A stretch of DNA of 64,000 nucleotides, taken from the IMG/VR virus record IMGVR_UViG_3300032225_001769, positions 76,612-140,611 of that record, one strand, 5' to 3'. Of the stretch, positions 6,784 to 23,123 are shown one piece after another (position 1 is the stretch's first letter; every line of letters starts with the position of its first letter). The notes below the pieces were generated by a model that made no database searches, was not told the origin of the DNA, and was given only the letters and a program-made list of their open reading frames with translations. This DNA comes from a virus (Duplodnaviria; Heunggongvirae; Uroviricota; Caudoviricetes). Both the position numbers and the translations under genes were made by a program.

Positions 6784-7542
6784 TCAAATTACTCTTGTTT
6801 TTTCGTGACCGACTCTAATGCGAGGGTCGCACCAGATTTCAAATCCTGCTTCCTTTGCATCCAGGCAGAAACTTACATCCTCTCCACACATATCCTGAAC
6901 CTCTCCTGATTCAAAGACTTGCATCTTTGGTGCAAACCATGGATACTTCATCTCCGAATGTTCAAAGACTCCTTTTTTGATGAGCAACCATCCAAATCCA
7001 GTATAGTCTACTGTAAATGGTTTGCGGCGCTTTGAGATACTTTCTACAGTTTCGTGATTCATGACTCCACCATTATTGCGGAAATCATCTTCTTCAAGCC
7101 AATGTGCTACTGATGTAGTCACACCATCTTCGGTTGCATACCAACCGGCGGCGAGATCTTTGTCCATCAGAACCAATTGCCAAAAACTATTTGAATTAAA
7201 AACAATGTCAGAATCAATCCAAAGTTGCCAATCATAATTTAGTTTGCCGTCCCAGGGAATCTGATCCGGTCCTCTCAGTACATTCGCTCCTAAACATTTG
7301 CATCTTGCAAAGTTTACCATGGATGAATAGTCTTGCGAGATCTGAATGCTTGCTCCCGATTGTACAAGATCAAAACAGAGTTGTACAAAATTTTTCAAGT
7401 AAGTATAGGAAACTCCTCTGCCGGGAAGACAAAATACGATTGATTTTCCTTTTACCATTTCTCTTGCGAGATTGTAATCCCATTCTTCCTGAGATTGCCC
7501 CGTGATGGGTGCCTTTGCTTTTACGGTGAATCCCTTTGCCAT
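6784..7542 (-). CDS. putative glycosyltransferase (GT-A fold-like)
   Basis: 252 aa; DxD-like IDSDIVF and C-terminal CGEDVSFCLDAKEAGFEIWCDPRIRVGHE resembling GT2/GT25 ED..F...G...P.V.H signature. Confidence 0.45.
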   Translation of the reverse strand: MAKGFTVKAKAPITGQSQEEWDYNLAREMVKGKSIVFCLPGRGVSYTYLKNFVQLCFDLVQSGASIQISQDYSSMVNFARCKCLGANVLRGPDQIPWDGKLNYDWQLWIDSDIVFNSNSFWQLVLMDKDLAAGWYATEDGVTTSVAHWLEEDDFRNNGGVMNHETVESISKRRKPFTVDYTGFGWLLIKKGVFEHSEMKYPWFAPKMQVFESGEVQDMCGEDVSFCLDAKEAGFEIWCDPRIRVGHEKTRVI

Positions 7543-13961: not shown

Positions 13962-14153
13962 TTACAATTCTACCATCCAGTCCGTGTCTTTGTCAAGATG
14001 TACCCAGAAGTGATTGCGTCCGTTCATGGATGTAAGGAACACGCGATTACCCAGGTGTTGCTCAATGATACACTCGCTGTCTGCGTCCATGATGTTAGCA
14101 AACCTGTTCTTTGCCTTGCGGGAGAGTGGTGTGACAAATGCGGTGTTGTTCAT
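13962..14153 (-). CDS. hypothetical protein (63 aa)
   Basis: ORF track; co-oriented; overlapping + ORF 13845..14195 considered less likely. Confidence 0.4.
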   Translation of the reverse strand: MNNTAFVTPLSRKAKNRFANIMDADSECIIEQHLGNRVFLTSMNGRNHFWVHLDKDTDWMVEL

Positions 14154-14196
14154 GCGATTGCCTGCGAATGCCTGTATTGTACTGTGAATGTGTGAG

Positions 14197-14247
14197 TCTC
14201 GTCGAGATGTAGTGTGCCACTTGTGCGACTGTCACATCTCGACGAGA
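14197..14247. repeat. 13-bp perfect inverted repeat TCTCGTCGAGATG / CATCTCGACGAGA flanking a dyad-box copy; same CTCG(A/T)CGAGAT motif as iterons at 20.8 kb
   Basis: read directly. Confidence 0.55.
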
Positions 14248-14265
14248 GTATAATCTCGACTAGAG

Positions 14266-15116: not shown

Positions 15117-15632
15117 TCAGGTGTCTAACAATGCCTTAAGGGACTTAATTGTATCTTTATATTTCTTCAATTCTTCCTCAAGTTCTTTAATCTTGAGGTC
15201 TTTATCATCTTGAGGTTCTTCTTTTTTCTCAAGAATGGTTCCAATTAAGTTAGTATCCAGAAGGTTAGCACCCTCAAGGTTAGCACCCTCAAGGTTAGCA
15301 CCCTCAAGGATAGCACGCCAAAGGTTAGCACCCCAAAGGTTAGCACCCCAAAGGTTAGCACCCCGAAGGTCAGCATTCATAAGGTTAGCATCCTGAAGGT
15401 CAGCACCCCGAAGGTCAGCATCCTCAAGGTTAGCACCCTCAAGGTTAGCACCCCGAAGGTAAGCACCCCGAAGGTAAGCATTCACAAGGTCAGCATCCTC
15501 AAGGTTAGCACCCACAAGGTTAGCACCCCGAAGGTTAGCACCCCGAAGGTTAGCACCCACAAGGTTAGCACCCCAAAGGTTAGCACCCCAAAGGTAAGCA
15601 CCCGGTTCGATTTTGTATCCGTTGACGATCAT
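15117..15632 (-). CDS. pentapeptide-repeat protein with C-terminal charged coiled-coil tail
   Basis: 171 aa from [13 protein letters not shown]; >25 tandem A(N/D)LxG pentapeptides ([15 protein letters not shown]..), DNA-level 15-nt repeats 15240-15600. Confidence 0.8.
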
Positions 15633-15715
15633 GGTGAGATTCCTTTGGTTGACTTTGTAATCATAAGGCACCTAGAGGGGATTCTAGGTGCCGCTGTGCC
15701 AGTTGTCAGAGTGTC

Positions 15716-17992: not shown

Positions 17993-18232
17993 TTAGAGTG
18001 GCACACAGGCACCGATACGAATCTGCTCTCGACTTGTTTCAGCAGGATAATTATTGATACTATGAATTCCCCAGTAATACCTGCGAACAGTACGCTCACT
18101 GAGATTCATTGTTTCGGCAATCTGTTCGTAGGCCATACCAACGTACCTGCAAAGATTGACGTATTTAATATTCTCTAGTGCTTCGTGAGTTGCATGAACA
18201 GTGGAGAATTCTGAAACTGTTGGGATTTTCAT
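17993..18232 (-). CDS. small HTH DNA-binding protein (sigma-70 region-4-like helix-turn-helix)
   Basis: 79 aa; ..YEQIAETMNLSERTVRRYYWGIH..; paralog of 19611..19853 (shared C-terminus IR(I/L)GACV(P/T)L). Confidence 0.5.
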   Translation of the reverse strand: MKIPTVSEFSTVHATHEALENIKYVNLCRYVGMAYEQIAETMNLSERTVRRYYWGIHSINNYPAETSREQIRIGACVPL

Positions 18233-19290: not shown

Positions 19291-19533
19291 TTAGACTGTC
19301 ACACTCTCCAGGAGTTCTTCGATAGTTTCATCATCATAACAACAGGAGATTTGCTCCAGAATGTCATTGGGAGATTGAATCCCCAGATTCTCCACAATAG
19401 TATCATAAGCAAATTGCATCAGACATTTAGTATCCATGTCATCCACCATTCGTTCAGCATAGTTCTCAATGAACTGCTGAATCTGATCGCTGGTGAAAGA
19501 ATTGAACTTAGCGGTGAGTTGATCGGTGTTCAT
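19291..19533 (-). CDS. acidic hypothetical protein (80 aa)
   Basis: ORF track. Confidence 0.45.
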   Translation of the reverse strand: MNTDQLTAKFNSFTSDQIQQFIENYAERMVDDMDTKCLMQFAYDTIVENLGIQSPNDILEQISCCYDDETIEELLESVTV

Positions 19534-19610
19534 TGGTTGAGTGGTGCTTTGATTGACTTTGTAATCATAAGGGCACTGGAGGCGATCCTAGTGCCCTCTG
19601 GTGCCAGTTC

Positions 19611-19853
19611 TCAGAGTGTCACACAGGCACCCAGACGAATCTGAGTATAAGAGTCGTGTGGTGCATTATTCATATGATGAATTCCATAGTAATAGCGGCG
19701 AACATTCGTCTCACTCATATCAAAGTGTTCTGCGATTCTGTTAAAGGAATGAGTGGGATATTCCTTCCTATAAAGATTAATCATCTCACACCAGAACTTT
19801 GCATTCTTGGTGCAATTGATGCTTTTCTCGGAATGAACCTTAACTTGTCGCAT
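19611..19853 (-). CDS. small HTH DNA-binding protein, paralog of 17993..18232
   Basis: ..FNRIAEHFDMSETNVRRYYYGIHH..IRLGACVTL. Confidence 0.5.
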   Translation of the reverse strand: MRQVKVHSEKSINCTKNAKFWCEMINLYRKEYPTHSFNRIAEHFDMSETNVRRYYYGIHHMNNAPHDSYTQIRLGACVTL

Positions 19854-19934
19854 GGTGGTGTCGTGTGGTTGACTTGTTCAGTATTGCAGGGATCTCATGA
19901 GAACACAAGATCCCCGGTGACGGTTTCTAGAGTG

Positions 19935-20174
19935 TCACATCAGGTCTTCATACTCTCCAGAATCCATTGCGTCTTCCAGTGCGGTCACCAGACCATCGAA
20001 GTCTTCGGATGCAGGAAGAACACCAGTGAGAATGTTGACCAGATCACCATACTCTTCGCGGAGTTCATTCAAATACTCTTTGCGGTTGGCGTAACCATTG
20101 TCGGTGTAGATGCTCATGATCGGTTCGGGGTGGTGAACGAGTCCAACATAAGGCATGAGAACCGGATGAGTCAA
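19935..20174 (-). CDS. acidic hypothetical protein (79 aa)
   Basis: ORF track; TATAAT hexamer upstream. Confidence 0.45.
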   Translation of the reverse strand: MTHPVLMPYVGLVHHPEPIMSIYTDNGYANRKEYLNELREEYGDLVNILTGVLPASEDFDGLVTALEDAMDSGEYEDLM

Positions 20175-20639
20175 TAGGCAGCGACCAGTTGCAGAATTGG
20201 CACATTATATCCAGATACTAAAATATGACTCCTAAGTGATAAGAATTGAAAAAGCAATTCTATCAGGAATCTTCCCGTCTTTTTGATTTGATTGTATCAC
20301 TAAGTTATTGTTTCCTGTTTTATTATGCCAGAGTCAGGACTAAACTCTCTCCTTTATAATATAAGTTAAAAGCACTTATTTCTTATATCTGTCAGATTGT
20401 TACCTCTTGATCCTGAAGGAGAGTTCAAGTGCTGCTCTGTGATATAATAATCTAAGTGCTATTATTTATACAAGATTAGTACAAATCTGCATAATCCTTT
20501 ACACTGGCATGAACATCTTCGTCTCCTTGAAGATCTAGAATGTCCTTCCAGTTCATGTCTTCCACGTTTAGATCATCATAACACTCAATATCAAGTGTAA
20601 CTCGTACCAGGCGCTTCTGTGCTAACATGATTCATGTGC

Positions 20640-21210
20640 GATGTGTGGTAATTATATCATGCATAGTGTCGATATGCAAGCGATTCGTAGTCCTGTGCAT
20701 CTCGTGCGTACTCCTCTTCAAGATCCTGCGAATAATCATCAGAATCCTGCGAATAATCGTTGCTTGCGTAGTCGAAGTCGTAGTCGTCGTACATAACTCG
20801 TCGAGATCCTGTGGGGTACTGTGTGATTATAGCATGATTCTCGACGAGATGCAAGCACTTTGGGCGTGTCTCGACGAGATTCATGTGGTATATATGCACT
20901 ATCGTCGAGATTTTATAAGATTTTGTAATATAAAGAGTCCTTATGGGGGTTTTTGGGCGGTTCGCGGGGGGTGGGCTTGACAAATGTGCGCGTCTTATGG
21001 TAAACTGCCTAAACTTGCATAAGGATCGAAGGGAATAGAAGGTTTATAAGAAATTATAATCGAAGGGAATAGAAGGTTTATAAGACATTAAACCCTATAA
21101 TACTCATAGGTTTTCCACAGATAACAATAGTTTTCCACACTTTTTCCACAACCAAACAAATTCACAACATACATTTTTTAATACATTTAATTAATAAAAC
21201 AAATTAATTA
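20640..21210. promoter_or_regulatory. non-coding, origin-like/regulatory region: 4 iteron copies CTCG(A/T)CGAGAT (20798-20911), sigma70 promoter, two 27-bp direct repeats (21025-21051, 21059-21085), three TTTTCCACA DnaA-box-like repeats (21111-21150), AT-rich tract 21160-21210
   Basis: all repeats read directly; track ORFs 20657..20983(-) and 20627..20980(+) overlap the iterons and are of doubtful coding value. Confidence 0.5.
20977..21006 (+). promoter_or_regulatory. strong sigma70-type promoter TTGACA-18-TAAACT (TGG extended -10) pointing rightwards
   Basis: consensus -35 and near-consensus -10 with TGn. Confidence 0.55.
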
Positions 21211-21212
21211 AA

Positions 21213-21812
21213 TTAAAACAATCTCACTCTATTTGATTTATCAATACCTTTTGCTTTTTGATATGTAGAAAGACCACCAGCATTAGAAATAAATCCAGTC
21301 ACAGTACATTGAAACTTTTGATTTGCTCCTTTTTTTGCCCTCTCAATTCGTTCATCTAGAGATGAACTTAAATACCCCTTTCTTGACCGCTCGCTTCTTT
21401 GTTCTGGAGTTAAGGATGCATGTCCCTTTATAACTGATTCCCTTCTTTGCTCTGGTGTTCTACTTGCCTGTGCCTTTATTCCCCATTCTCTTCTTTGTTC
21501 TGGAGTTAGACTTGCACTTATTTTTTTTCTATGTTCTTCGGTAACGATAAGTCCAGATGCTCCGTCACCACCATCAGTTTTATTGCGAAGAATACCAGTC
21601 CCATTATCTTTTCTACCAAAGACTTTTATCATATATTCTTCGTGCTTAAATGATTCTTCTTCAGTTAGATTCTGTTTGAGAAAGATTATTCTTGATTTGT
21701 CTTTTGGTGGTTTATATATTCTGTTTTTAGAATGAATCCTGCTTCCTTTTCCTTTACCAATATAATAAGGTGTTTTATCTACTCTCAAATAAGCATAAGT
21801 ATAATAATTCAT
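21213..21812 (-). CDS. GIY-YIG homing endonuclease, paralog of 17317..17895
   Basis: 199 aa; N-terminal ~100 aa nearly identical to other copy (YYTYAYLRVDKTPYYIGKGKG). Confidence 0.8.
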   Translation of the reverse strand: MNYYTYAYLRVDKTPYYIGKGKGSRIHSKNRIYKPPKDKSRIIFLKQNLTEEESFKHEEYMIKVFGRKDNGTGILRNKTDGGDGASGLIVTEEHRKKISASLTPEQRREWGIKAQASRTPEQRRESVIKGHASLTPEQRSERSRKGYLSSSLDERIERAKKGANQKFQCTVTGFISNAGGLSTYQKAKGIDKSNRVRLF

Positions 21813-21813
21813 A

Positions 21814-22167
21814 CTACCTCAACTTACTCTTGATTTGTGTGAGACAATCATTAAATCCTTCTACACTACACTCTACATAAGCATTTTGACTTCCTGCTGC
21901 CGATTGTTCTTTCGGCAACCATTTCTCAACCGCACCCAAAACATCATCAATAAACATAGGTCTGTCAAGTTTACGAAGAGCATCATAAAGTGTCGTTGGT
22001 TCTGGTGATTTATGCTTTTCCATTTCTTTGAGAAGTTCTAATTTTGCTTGAAGGACTTTGATTTTTGCTTCTGTTTTTTCAATTTCCGTCATTGGTGGTT
22101 CCTTGGTTGAAGTTGTTATTTTACGGGATGGTGTGGTTCTATGTAATAGATGATCTTTGAGATTCAT
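21814..22167 (-). CDS. hypothetical protein (117 aa)
   Basis: ORF track; 1-nt gap to GIY-YIG start. Confidence 0.45.
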   Translation of the reverse strand: MNLKDHLLHRTTPSRKITTSTKEPPMTEIEKTEAKIKVLQAKLELLKEMEKHKSPEPTTLYDALRKLDRPMFIDDVLGAVEKWLPKEQSAAGSQNAYVECSVEGFNDCLTQIKSKLR

Positions 22168-22173
22168 TTGTAA

Positions 22174-22389
22174 TTAACAACTACCAAATCTGAACGACTT
22201 GAATAGACTGTGACCATAATCATTACTCACAAAGAACCCAAGTAGTTCCAGTTTCTGTTTGTCTTCCTCGGATACATCATCAGGACGAATTTCTGGAGTA
22301 ATTGTGAGTTCATCATGCTCACAATGAGTTGGAAATTCGGGATTTCCATACTTGGAAAGAATTTGCAGTGCTTGAATCAAGTCGTTCAT
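22174..22389 (-). CDS. hypothetical protein (71 aa)
   Basis: ORF track. Confidence 0.4.
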   Translation of the reverse strand: MNDLIQALQILSKYGNPEFPTHCEHDELTITPEIRPDDVSEEDKQKLELLGFFVSNDYGHSLFKSFRFGSC

Positions 22390-22391
22390 AA

Positions 22392-23123
22392 TTAGTGCTT
22401 CAGAGTGGGCATGAGACGCAAACCATCACGAAAGATGGCATTTTTCATGTTGCAACGAACAGTGCTCAGAGTTTCCATAGTGGCAACAGTGTTCACAAGA
22501 AACATTTTTTCAAGTTCTTCACGAATACGCTCAACTGAAACCTTGCTCAGCATTTCAGCAGCAAAGTCACTGTTGACCGCATCCCAGGTATCTGCATCAA
22601 TGTCGAATCCTTTGGTAATATGAAACCTCAGTGCTCGCATGACTCTCAACCCATCTTCTGCGATTCGGTCAGTAGGATTGCCCACAAACTTCAGCAGATT
22701 ATCTTGTAGATCTTGGCGACCACCAAAAGGATCAATCAATTCATTATCCAACCTTGCCATTGCATTGACGGTGAAATCCCGGCGCTCCAGATCGTCCATG
22801 AGAGTACCGGCCAGTACAAAATCAGGCCGCCTGCCGTCGCTGCTAGGACCGTCCTTGCGGGCAAGTACGAAGTCAGCAACGTTTGTGCGATGCTTCAGAG
22901 GATGCCCATCAGGAACCTGTGCCCGAACAGTGAAGAATTCAGGAGTTTCCAAAAATACTTTGAAACCACACCATTTTAGATGTGCTACAAGATTTTTAAA
23001 GGCATCATTGGCATCTCGATGAAACTCTAGAGAACGTGGAATTGCAACGAAATCAACATCCTTGGATTTTACACCGAGAAAAGAATCTCGAACTGCTCCA
23101 CCCACTTCTGCGAATTGAAACAC
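22392..23123 (-). CDS. cca: tRNA nucleotidyltransferase (CCA-adding enzyme), minimal head-domain form
   Basis: 243 aa; class-II polbeta-NTase motifs GGAVRDSFLG..DVD, ERRDFTVNAMA, DPFGG..DL....L..VG.P..R..EDGLRVMRALRF; GTG start with GGAGA SD. Confidence 0.8.
   Translation of the reverse strand: MFQFAEVGGAVRDSFLGVKSKDVDFVAIPRSLEFHRDANDAFKNLVAHLKWCGFKVFLETPEFFTVRAQVPDGHPLKHRTNVADFVLARKDGPSSDGRRPDFVLAGTLMDDLERRDFTVNAMARLDNELIDPFGGRQDLQDNLLKFVGNPTDRIAEDGLRVMRALRFHITKGFDIDADTWDAVNSDFAAEMLSKVSVERIREELEKMFLVNTVATMETLSTVRCNMKNAIFRDGLRLMPTLKH

Follow-up and report, generated by a model that had tools for sequence, protein, structure and literature searches.

A two-part control region at a fixed place in T4-like cyanophage genomes, with a candidate transcription-primed replication origin in its right half

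The question raised by positions 20640-21210 of the window analyzed here (64,000 nucleotides of the caudoviricete IMG/VR record IMGVR_UViG_3300032225_001769, positions 76,612 to 140,611) is whether a short stretch crowded with promoter-like sequences, repeats and DnaA boxes serves to start DNA replication or to control transcription only. A first-pass annotation had described it as a non-coding, origin-like region, and all of the features named there are present and non-random in the 64-kb window. As far as we know, experimental mapping of a replication origin has not been achieved for any cyanomyovirus; for Syn9 a single origin has been predicted, as reported in PMC2984593. By sequence comparison, the region forms the center of a control region with two parts, which occupies a fixed place in many T4-like cyanophages. 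On the left it comprises the gene for an acidic mini-protein, here named acid45, with operator-bearing promoters, and adjoins a second such gene, orf50; on the right a rightward promoter is followed by direct repeats, DnaA boxes and an A+T-rich element. We consider the right half a candidate for a T4-type transcription-primed replication origin equipped with host DnaA boxes, and put the probability of this reading at roughly 0.4. It is ranked first because the right half matches the anatomy of T4 origins, is unique in the genome and transcribes no open reading frame (ORF) in four lineages, and furthermore because the RNA is without structure or Rfam match and phased host DnaA boxes adjoin the A+T-rich element.

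In phage T4, oriF and oriG consist of a promoter and a downstream A+T-rich unwinding element at which the transcript forms a persistent R-loop, oriE combines an early-mode promoter with evenly spaced 12-nt repeats that are conserved in the syntenic regions of relatives, and the origins lie near points of transcriptional divergence (PMC3016281). The near-consensus promoter that had been claimed for the window is indeed there (TTGACA and TAAACT at a distance of 18 nt, with TG upstream), and transcription is predicted to start at about 21012-21014. It opposes every neighboring gene and no ORF lies downstream of it in the window; likewise, no + strand gene is annotated or seen ahead of the convergent minus-strand genes in S-SRM01, S-SKS1 and S-T4. 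The statement that it fires into the repeats is correct for the 34-bp repeats and the DnaA boxes but not for the palindromes, from which it points away.

Relatives of the region were drawn from IMG/VR contigs, and subsets of 70, 74, 75, 79, 81 or 87 sequences were used depending on the test. Across 74 of them the -35 hexamer is nearly invariant (TTGACA, in a few cases TTGACT), and the extended -10 element (TRTGnTAnnnT), much of the spacer and a G-rich stretch ahead of the -35 element (GGGGGGTGGGC in the window) are conserved, as are the first ~25 nt of the transcript. An exact 22-nt promoter core taken from the relatives recurs in more than 120 IMG/VR contigs. Where enough upstream sequence is available (87 distinct loci), the promoter adjoins orf50 in 87, acid45 in 86 and at least two palindromes in 85 cases; since it is always found beside orf50, it marks a fixed locus and is not a mobile promoter. 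In the S-SRM01 genome it is the sole consensus extended -10 promoter facing against the direction of the genes. The first-pass annotation had made its proposal depend on conservation of the repeats in relatives, and each class of element is in fact kept at the fixed locus in more than 120 contigs as well as in four isolates from different genera. The -10 element and the start are bracketed by CTTATG/CATAAG half-sites that form an inverted repeat (I1). Six YATAAGR sites fall into 20900-21110, compared with 1.2 per kb in the whole window, and the arms are conserved in the relatives as TCTTRTG paired with CAYAAGA.

The two direct repeats behind the promoter had been given a length of 27 bp; both copies exist, while unit and period are 34 nt, and the copies at 21025-21056 and 21059-21090 are 97-100% identical. 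A tandem repeat was detected by TRF somewhere in the first 300 nt of the leader in 66 of 79 relatives, in about two thirds just after the start, and often with the TTTATAAG core. Evenly spaced direct repeats, as in oriE, are thus found in the window (2 x 34 nt) and also in S-SKS1 (5 x 20 bp, all perfect; GAAGGTTTATAAGAGTATTA). In the relatives the periods cluster at 10, 20-21, 31, 40-43 and 53-55 nt, i.e. at multiples of ~10.5 bp, and because they follow the helical repeat of DNA they argue for a role at the DNA rather than the RNA level. The TTTATAAG repeats could conceivably be tandem minus-strand T4-type late promoters (TATAAATG or TATAAACC), a match that is imperfect and inconsistent between relatives. 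Between the repeats and the boxes, at 21094-21114, lies a small hairpin (CCTAT-aatactc-ATAGG); the TTTT behind it also begins the first DnaA box. The hairpin bears a weak resemblance to a terminator and is not kept in the relatives.

The three boxes, TTTTCCACA, occur nowhere else in the 64 kb. They had been noted as relaxed matches to the DnaA-box consensus; the triplet is there, but its members are exact copies of the 'species-specific' cyanobacterial DnaA box (PMC4674748; PMC3480399). In the leaders of the relatives (27.5 kb) TTTTCCACA was counted 47 times on the + strand and never on the - strand, as compared with 17 occurrences on both strands in the flanks (727 kb); the boxes are ~140-fold enriched in leaders over flanks. 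Their spacing in the relatives is 9-12 or 20-21 bp, equal to one or two helical turns, so that a cluster of several phased and co-oriented host-consensus 9-mers is present. A further ~19 of 70 relatives have ATTCTCA sites (one to three direct and one inverted), which are mutually exclusive with the DnaA boxes and show the same phasing, with distances of 11-12 or 21-24 bp (e.g. loci L004, L002 and L086; S-SRM01, L001 4490-4530; S-T4, L425). Two ATTCTCA half-sites of S-T4 join into AGAGAATTATTCTCA, a palindrome of 7-1-7 layout reminiscent of Fur-family boxes, and in other relatives a third inverted repeat fills the position of the boxes. Independently of this locus, three or more closely spaced TTTTCCACA boxes were seen in unrelated contexts in at least 115 other IMG/VR contigs (L137-L251; 26-66% GC); it may be that phage or phage-like contigs often carry such clusters, or that host DNA was misclassified in some of these cases.

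The A+T-rich tract said to follow the boxes is borne out: the GC content is 18% at 21150-21249 and 17-18% at 21150-21270, and a 100-bp stretch beginning at 21173 shares the lowest value of the window (17%) with two others. The element (ATATGTTTTTTAATAYATTTTTTTAATTAA) can be aligned across the window, S-SRM01, S-SCSM1, S-T4 and S-SKS1. It is unique in the 240-kb genome of S-SRM01, where it holds one of only two A/T-only runs of at least 30 nt. All of 75 leaders from relatives contain a 60-nt stretch with a median GC content of 13% about 105 nt past the start, compared with 30% for comparable minima elsewhere. The downstream A+T-rich unwinding element of a T4-type origin therefore has a counterpart here in both composition and conservation.

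Taken together, these elements would allow the following course of events. Transcription from the rightward promoter would pass over the phased repeats, the three co-oriented host-type DnaA boxes and the A+T-rich element, and host DnaA bound to the phased boxes could help to open the adjoining A+T-rich DNA as it does at bacterial oriC. Such an origin would unite an early promoter and even repeats, as in T4 oriE, with a promoter and an A+T-rich unwinding element, as in oriF and oriG. Firing of the promoter, protein binding, R-loop formation or unwinding and a replication start at this locus are all inferred. In a wider form, which we regard as doubtful, the module would be a portable origin of T4-like cyanophages of several genera, freshwater and marine, in which a promoter for host RNA polymerase, phased iterons and a host-factor array (DnaA boxes or ATTCTCA sites) open the A+T-rich element, some lineages recruit host DnaA, which would be unprecedented in the T4 group, and the adjacent acidic mini-proteins, under control of the palindromes, act as a regulatory switch.

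Table 1. Features of the control region and its neighborhood in window coordinates; promoters, operators and boxes are predictions.
Feature	Position	Strand	Remarks
Second palindrome cluster	14196..14263		Three TCTCGWCGAGA-type palindromes upstream of 63-amino-acid gene 13962-14153 (-), PHROG 1653
orf50	20476..20628	-	50-amino-acid acidic protein, PHROG 12516, E = 1e-16
orf50 leftward promoter	20651..20679	-	TTGCAT (20679-20674), 17-nt spacer, TATAAT (20656-20651), read from sequence
acid45	20657..20794	-	45-amino-acid ORF, MYDDYDFDY...LAYRHYA
Palindrome 1 (CTCGTCGAGAT)	20797..20807		Directly upstream of acid45 start codon
P1, acid45 leftward promoter	20826..20854	-	TTGCAT (20854-20849), 17-nt spacer, TATAAT (20831-20826)
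Palindrome 2 (TCTCGACGAGA)	20839-20849		Fills P1 spacer
Palindrome 3 (TCTCGACGAGAT)	20869..20880		
Palindrome 4 (ATCGTCGAGAT), degenerate	20901..20911		Upstream of TATATA element
Inverted CTTATG/CATAAG half-sites	20938..21025		TCCTTATGG at 20938, GTCTTATGG at 20992 (spacer), GCATAAGGA at 21017 (just past start)
Rightward sigma70-type promoter	20977..21006	+	TTGACA, 18-nt spacer, TGgTAAACT (extended -10), 10/12 consensus match
Direct repeat (ATCGAAGGGAATAGAAGGTTTATAAGAAATTATA)	21025..21090	+	34-nt unit, 1.9 copies, TTTATAAG core
Three co-oriented DnaA boxes (TTTTCCACA)	21111..21150 (21111, 21131, 21142)	+	Spacing 20 and 11 bp
A+T-rich element (..ACATACATTTTTTAATACATTTAATTAAT..)	21160..21215		Conserved in sequence
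Homing-endonuclease-like gene	21213..21812	-	199 amino acids, convergent; PHROG 314 'homing endonuclease', E = 1e-7

The left half (Table 1) is of a different nature. The label 'non-coding' has to be withdrawn for it, as acid45 encodes a conserved protein whose ORF is intact, with a length of 44-67 amino acids, in 96 related loci (59 distinct sequences); the ends are conserved and indels are in frame. It is conserved in S-SRM01 too, where it is unannotated. This freshwater Synechococcus phage (Kyanoviridae) is the only one with similarity to the region (75-78% identity over 20519-20898). The acid45 family has a median net charge of about -14 and ~20% Tyr, and the protein of the window contains ~33% Asp/Glu and 20% Tyr; it could act as a DNA mimic. 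orf50, for which 350 homologues were found, accompanies the module universally on its left side, and its product yielded an AlphaFold model with almost no secondary structure (pLDDT 76). No Pfam domain was matched by either the 45- or the 50-amino-acid protein. The putative orf50 promoter overlaps the 3' end of acid45 and is a paralogue of P1 without palindrome (repeat family D2, 20648-20681 and 20823-20856, 74% identical).

Four iterons in both orientations had been reported from this part. Copies of the motif are there, CTCGWCGAGAT being exact at 20797, 20840 and 20870 and having one mismatch at 20901, and with up to one mismatch 12 strand-hits were obtained in the window as opposed to 1.0 expected, a number reached in 0 of 100 shuffles. 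They are not tandem iterons, however: the match on both strands simply reflects the palindrome TCTCGWCGAGA, which sits in leftward promoters at two or three loci per genome, including the second cluster in the window. The palindromes, 11-13 bp in length, lie in and just downstream of the sigma70-type promoter of acid45. Read along the gene strand, the sequence is TTGCAT, a spacer consisting of CTCGTCGAG plus 8 nt, TATAAT, ~20 nt, a second palindrome and ATG. This layout of P1 (TTGCAT or TTGCAA, 17-18 nt, TATAAT or TACAAT) recurs in 71 of 81 distinct relatives, in 70 of the 71 with the palindrome in the spacer, and the 22-nt anchor at the acid45 start that contains palindrome 1 is found exactly in 98 IMG/VR contigs. 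The commonest gaps between copies are 29-35 bp and 41-43 bp. The TATATA element near palindrome 4 may belong to a second leftward promoter, which a regular-expression scan did not recover across relatives.

At the second cluster the palindromes flank a TATACT element, and S-SRM01 possesses a homologous cluster upstream of its homologue of the 63-amino-acid gene. The core CTCGWCGAG occurs 11 times in the S-SRM01 genome (240,842 bp), always in the interval 85.57-91.0 kb and there in three regions that are intergenic or hold promoters. Because an invariant palindrome overlaps core promoter elements at only two or three promoters per genome, the palindromes look like repressor operators. According to this proposal, acid45, and orf50 along with it, would be transcribed leftward from a sigma70-type promoter; a dimeric and probably phage-encoded DNA-binding protein would bind the palindromes and shut off P1, and the same protein would switch off the one or two other promoters that bear them. 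The (D)LDE repeats within acid45 are encoded by the operator nonamer (CTCGACGAG = Leu-Asp-Glu), and since this nonamer is common to coding repeats and operators, both may share an origin.

Paired palindromes were also looked for in 185,579 species genomes, and the 80 matches were all non-cyanobacterial and mostly from high-GC organisms, with no sign of a host regulon. ATCTCG half-sites are not enriched over the whole window, and a group of them at 7152-7472 is ordinary coding sequence. Two paralogous helix-turn-helix proteins of ~80 amino acids (17993-18232 and 19611-19853, minus strand; 41% identical), one of which matches the sigma70 region 4 helix-turn-helix family (E = 2e-6), were considered as binders of the palindromes and rejected as not conserved across the family; their common C-terminus, ...QIR(I/L)GACV(P/T)L, runs into the six-copy hairpin cassette described below. 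The same applies to an unannotated ORF for 100 amino acids just upstream of the third palindrome cluster of S-SRM01 (90,334-90,633; L132 40334-40633), the product of which looks winged-helix-like by eye. The window lacks this ORF, and only about 10 of the related loci contain it.

The isolates that carry the module are S-SRM01, S-SKS1, S-T4 and S-SCSM1, and orf50 is present in each of them. S-SKS1, a marine T4-like Llyrvirus, has orf50 and acidic genes, two palindromes, promoter, repeats, boxes and A+T-rich DNA in the same order; its boxes are TTTTCCACA, TTATCCACA and TTATCCACA at 21-bp spacing, and no + strand gene follows. Promoter, repeats and A+T-rich element stand beside orf50 in S-T4 and S-SCSM1, the latter being without palindromes and without acidic gene, and in more remote relatives from IMG/VR orf50, the promoter and three to four DnaA boxes are retained while palindromes are absent. 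As S-SCSM1 and the distant relatives hold parts of the right half without palindromes, the distribution indicates that the right half came first and is the more widespread unit, to which the acidic gene and the operators were added. In DSL-LC03, S-CAM9 and S-B05, orf50 is present but the module is not.

To the right of the module follows a variable slot that is occupied by different genes in the relatives. In the window it holds a convergent gene that had been labeled GIY-YIG; no Pfam family and no PDB sequence was matched, and the assignment rests with the PHROG homing-endonuclease family. At the 3' end it shares 81.5% identity with S-PM2p178, which is located beside F-CphI. More generally, every plausible gene between ~18 and 24 kb is on the minus strand and most are small uncharacterized ORFs, a layout typical of the hyperplastic early region of T4-type phages.

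Several observations weigh against an origin. The cumulative GC skew is monotonic and without inflection in the window as well as in the whole genome of S-SRM01, although with all genes on one strand this carries no information; in the 54 kb of S-SKS1 that were examined, the genes are likewise on a single strand. An initiator-like gene does not adjoin the module, nor is there a Rep-like gene among the flanking ORFs, which speaks against the proposal of a lambda-like iteron origin. Of the suggestion of a T4 oriF/oriG-type origin one part survives, namely that the right half fits the published T4 anatomy, whereas the palindromic 'iterons' belong to the leftward promoters. A protein cognate to the palindromes was not found among candidates in the window and S-SRM01, and cyanobacterial genomes yielded no paired sites. 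A purine- or G-rich leader that would favor R-loops is true of the window but not conserved in relatives. Two or more DnaA boxes are found in 17-20 of 70 close relatives, about a quarter, and ATTCTCA arrays or other elements replace them in the remainder, including S-SRM01. Long pure-A/T tracts are kept mainly where the next gene is convergent (22 of 29 relatives, compared with 3 of 39). Finally, of 70 distinct relatives 39 have a + strand gene behind the promoter, in 27 cases one for a GIY-YIG-type endonuclease, and for this reason the promoter may merely serve the cargo slot.

The last points form the core of the main rival, a serious one that we rate as possible: the region would be a purely transcriptional, divergent control region with two back-to-back early promoter systems and regulator sites between them. 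The rightward promoter would serve a variable cargo slot, often taken by a homing endonuclease, the repeats and the DnaA boxes or ATTCTCA arrays would be roadblocks or attenuators, and the A+T-rich element would mark the end of two convergent units. T4 free-standing endonucleases are tightly down-regulated. The endonuclease genes in the slot often have a late-promoter-like TATAAATA of their own, which would fit a need to block early read-through, and the bracketing of -10 element and start by half-sites is operator-like. The correlation of pure-A/T tracts with convergent junctions and the fact that neither these tracts nor the DnaA boxes are universal speak for the same explanation. On the other hand, the module is kept without a + strand gene in the window, S-SRM01, S-SKS1 and S-T4. 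An A+T-rich stretch behind the promoter is universal and does not depend on how the next gene is oriented; this gene is convergent, as in the window, in 29 of 70 relatives. The element is conserved in sequence without a conserved hairpin and is in this respect unlike an intrinsic terminator, so that its interpretation as a mere convergent terminator is partly weakened.

It appears unlikely that the repeats are only by-products of double-strand-break repair by the endonuclease slot or that the region is a shuffling cassette similar to the PeSLs of RB49 and phi1, with no function beyond its promoters. The genes on the right-hand side of the module vary to an extreme degree, repeat number and sequence differ between near-identical relatives, and PeSL cassettes are documented in T4-type hyperplastic regions (PMC2839356). 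Like the latter, the region combines short conserved promoter cassettes with a self-complementary -35/-10 interval, set among the small ORFs of a hyperplastic region and next to variable genes. PeSLs, however, number ~50 per genome and have varying stems, as opposed to one fixed palindrome at two to three promoters per genome here (2 clusters in 64 kb, 3 in 240 kb), and a single palindrome with its arms of 4-5 bp and 1-nt loop makes no stable hairpin on its own. Furthermore, repair scars would not be expected to show helically phased repeat periods, boxes that are strictly oriented and 140-fold enriched, or conservation across genera. Sequences that do fit the PeSL definition (PMC2839356) exist nearby: six ~70-nt intergenic cassettes on the minus strand, with ends at ~14570, 15078, 15668, 16152, 18704 and 19572 and the sequence GTGACACTCTGAGAACTG..GGCACCTAGAATCCCCTCTAGGTGCC(C/T)TATGATTACAAAGTCAACC, comprise a 10-bp stem-loop together with a box resembling a -35 element and a TATGAT resembling a -10 element. 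Several of the downstream ORFs start inside this cassette and share the N-terminus MPYDYKVNQR. Two further observations from the window are an ORF for 184 amino acids at 15117-15671 (minus strand) that consists nearly entirely of pentapeptide repeats (ANLxG-type) and a sharp step in GC content, which is 28-32% over the initial 6-7 kb and 44-47% between 8 and 16 kb.

Equally improbable is a function of the rightward promoter in making a non-coding RNA of ~150-200 nt, either for antisense or interference against the convergent endonuclease-like gene or as a read-through insulator for the leftward operon. A strong conserved promoter without downstream ORF, the conserved first ~25 nt of its transcript and the convergence of transcription on 21213-21812 would be in line with such a role, and a precedent exists in CfrI of S-PM2 (PMC2984593), a non-coding cyanophage transcript annotated as misc_RNA that lies opposite a homing-endonuclease gene. 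The antisense RNA that the first-pass annotation had offered as an alternative nevertheless finds little support. The fold of the predicted + transcript is not significant (z = -0.59), a scan of 19500-22500 against Rfam at permissive E-values gave chance-level matches only (E > 1), and the body of the RNA is a variable-number repeat with periods of the DNA helix; a z of -3.0 for the minus strand reflects the palindromes. The convergent gene differs or is absent in relatives, and in the window no convincing target was detected, one weak match to the conserved 5' end with 3 mismatches being judged due to chance. CfrI itself has no sequence similarity to the region and occurs in another setting, where it covers the 5' end of F-CphI together with the 3' end of psbA, while the module is kept even where there is no endonuclease gene. 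Least probable is a DnaA sink like datA, in which the exact, phased and strictly oriented host-type boxes would titrate host DnaA as phage genomes multiply and thereby disturb host replication control, for most relatives have a different array in place of the boxes, and promoter, repeats and A+T-rich element would be left unexplained.

In our literature searches, no paper was found that describes cyanophage DnaA boxes or this module, and the S-SRM01 paper does not mention promoters or origins. For the origin reading, the module provides a precise and small candidate in cultivable pairs: S-SKS1, S-T4 and S-SCSM1 propagate on Synechococcus WH7803 and S-SRM01 on a freshwater host. Should it be correct, relatives of T4 can make use of the host initiator, which would tie phage replication to the DnaA status of the host and perhaps further to its growth, light and nutrient state. 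If it is not, there is still a conserved operator-and-promoter switch beside a homing-endonuclease hotspot.

Among known systems the T4 origins come closest. As at oriF and oriG, a host-sigma-type promoter has an A+T-rich element downstream, in a phage of the same type; as at oriE, an early-type promoter is accompanied by even, short direct repeats, at a site of local transcriptional divergence. There is no MotA-type middle promoter here, unlike in T4, and cyanomyoviruses are without motA and asiA (PMC2984593). Host DnaA boxes are not part of the T4 origin anatomy (PMC3016281). The A+T-rich element of the module lies ~100-190 nt past the start, while the minimal T4 origin measures ~100 bp.

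Iteron-type theta origins (P1 oriR, F oriS, pSC101, lambda ori) possess phased repeats, DnaA boxes, an A+T-rich region and an operator-covered promoter. The module resembles them in that phased direct repeats, DnaA boxes and A+T-rich DNA lie beside a promoter with inverted-repeat operators; this combination is complete in the window, with the boxes occurring in only 17-20 of 70 close relatives. It differs in its neighbors, which are acidic proteins of 45-50 amino acids instead of a Rep or O-type initiator, in palindromes that share no sequence with the direct repeats, and in a strong predicted promoter that would fire through the repeats.

With cyanobacterial oriC the module has in common the identical TTTTCCACA box, the presence of several co-oriented copies and the adjoining A+T-rich DNA (PMC4674748; PMC3480399). 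It contains 3 boxes compared with 11 in S. elongatus PCC 7942, lacks a dnaN/dnaA context and resides in a lytic phage with genes of its own for helicase, loader and primase. The boxes appear to be oriented toward the unwinding element in the same way as box R1 of E. coli oriC.

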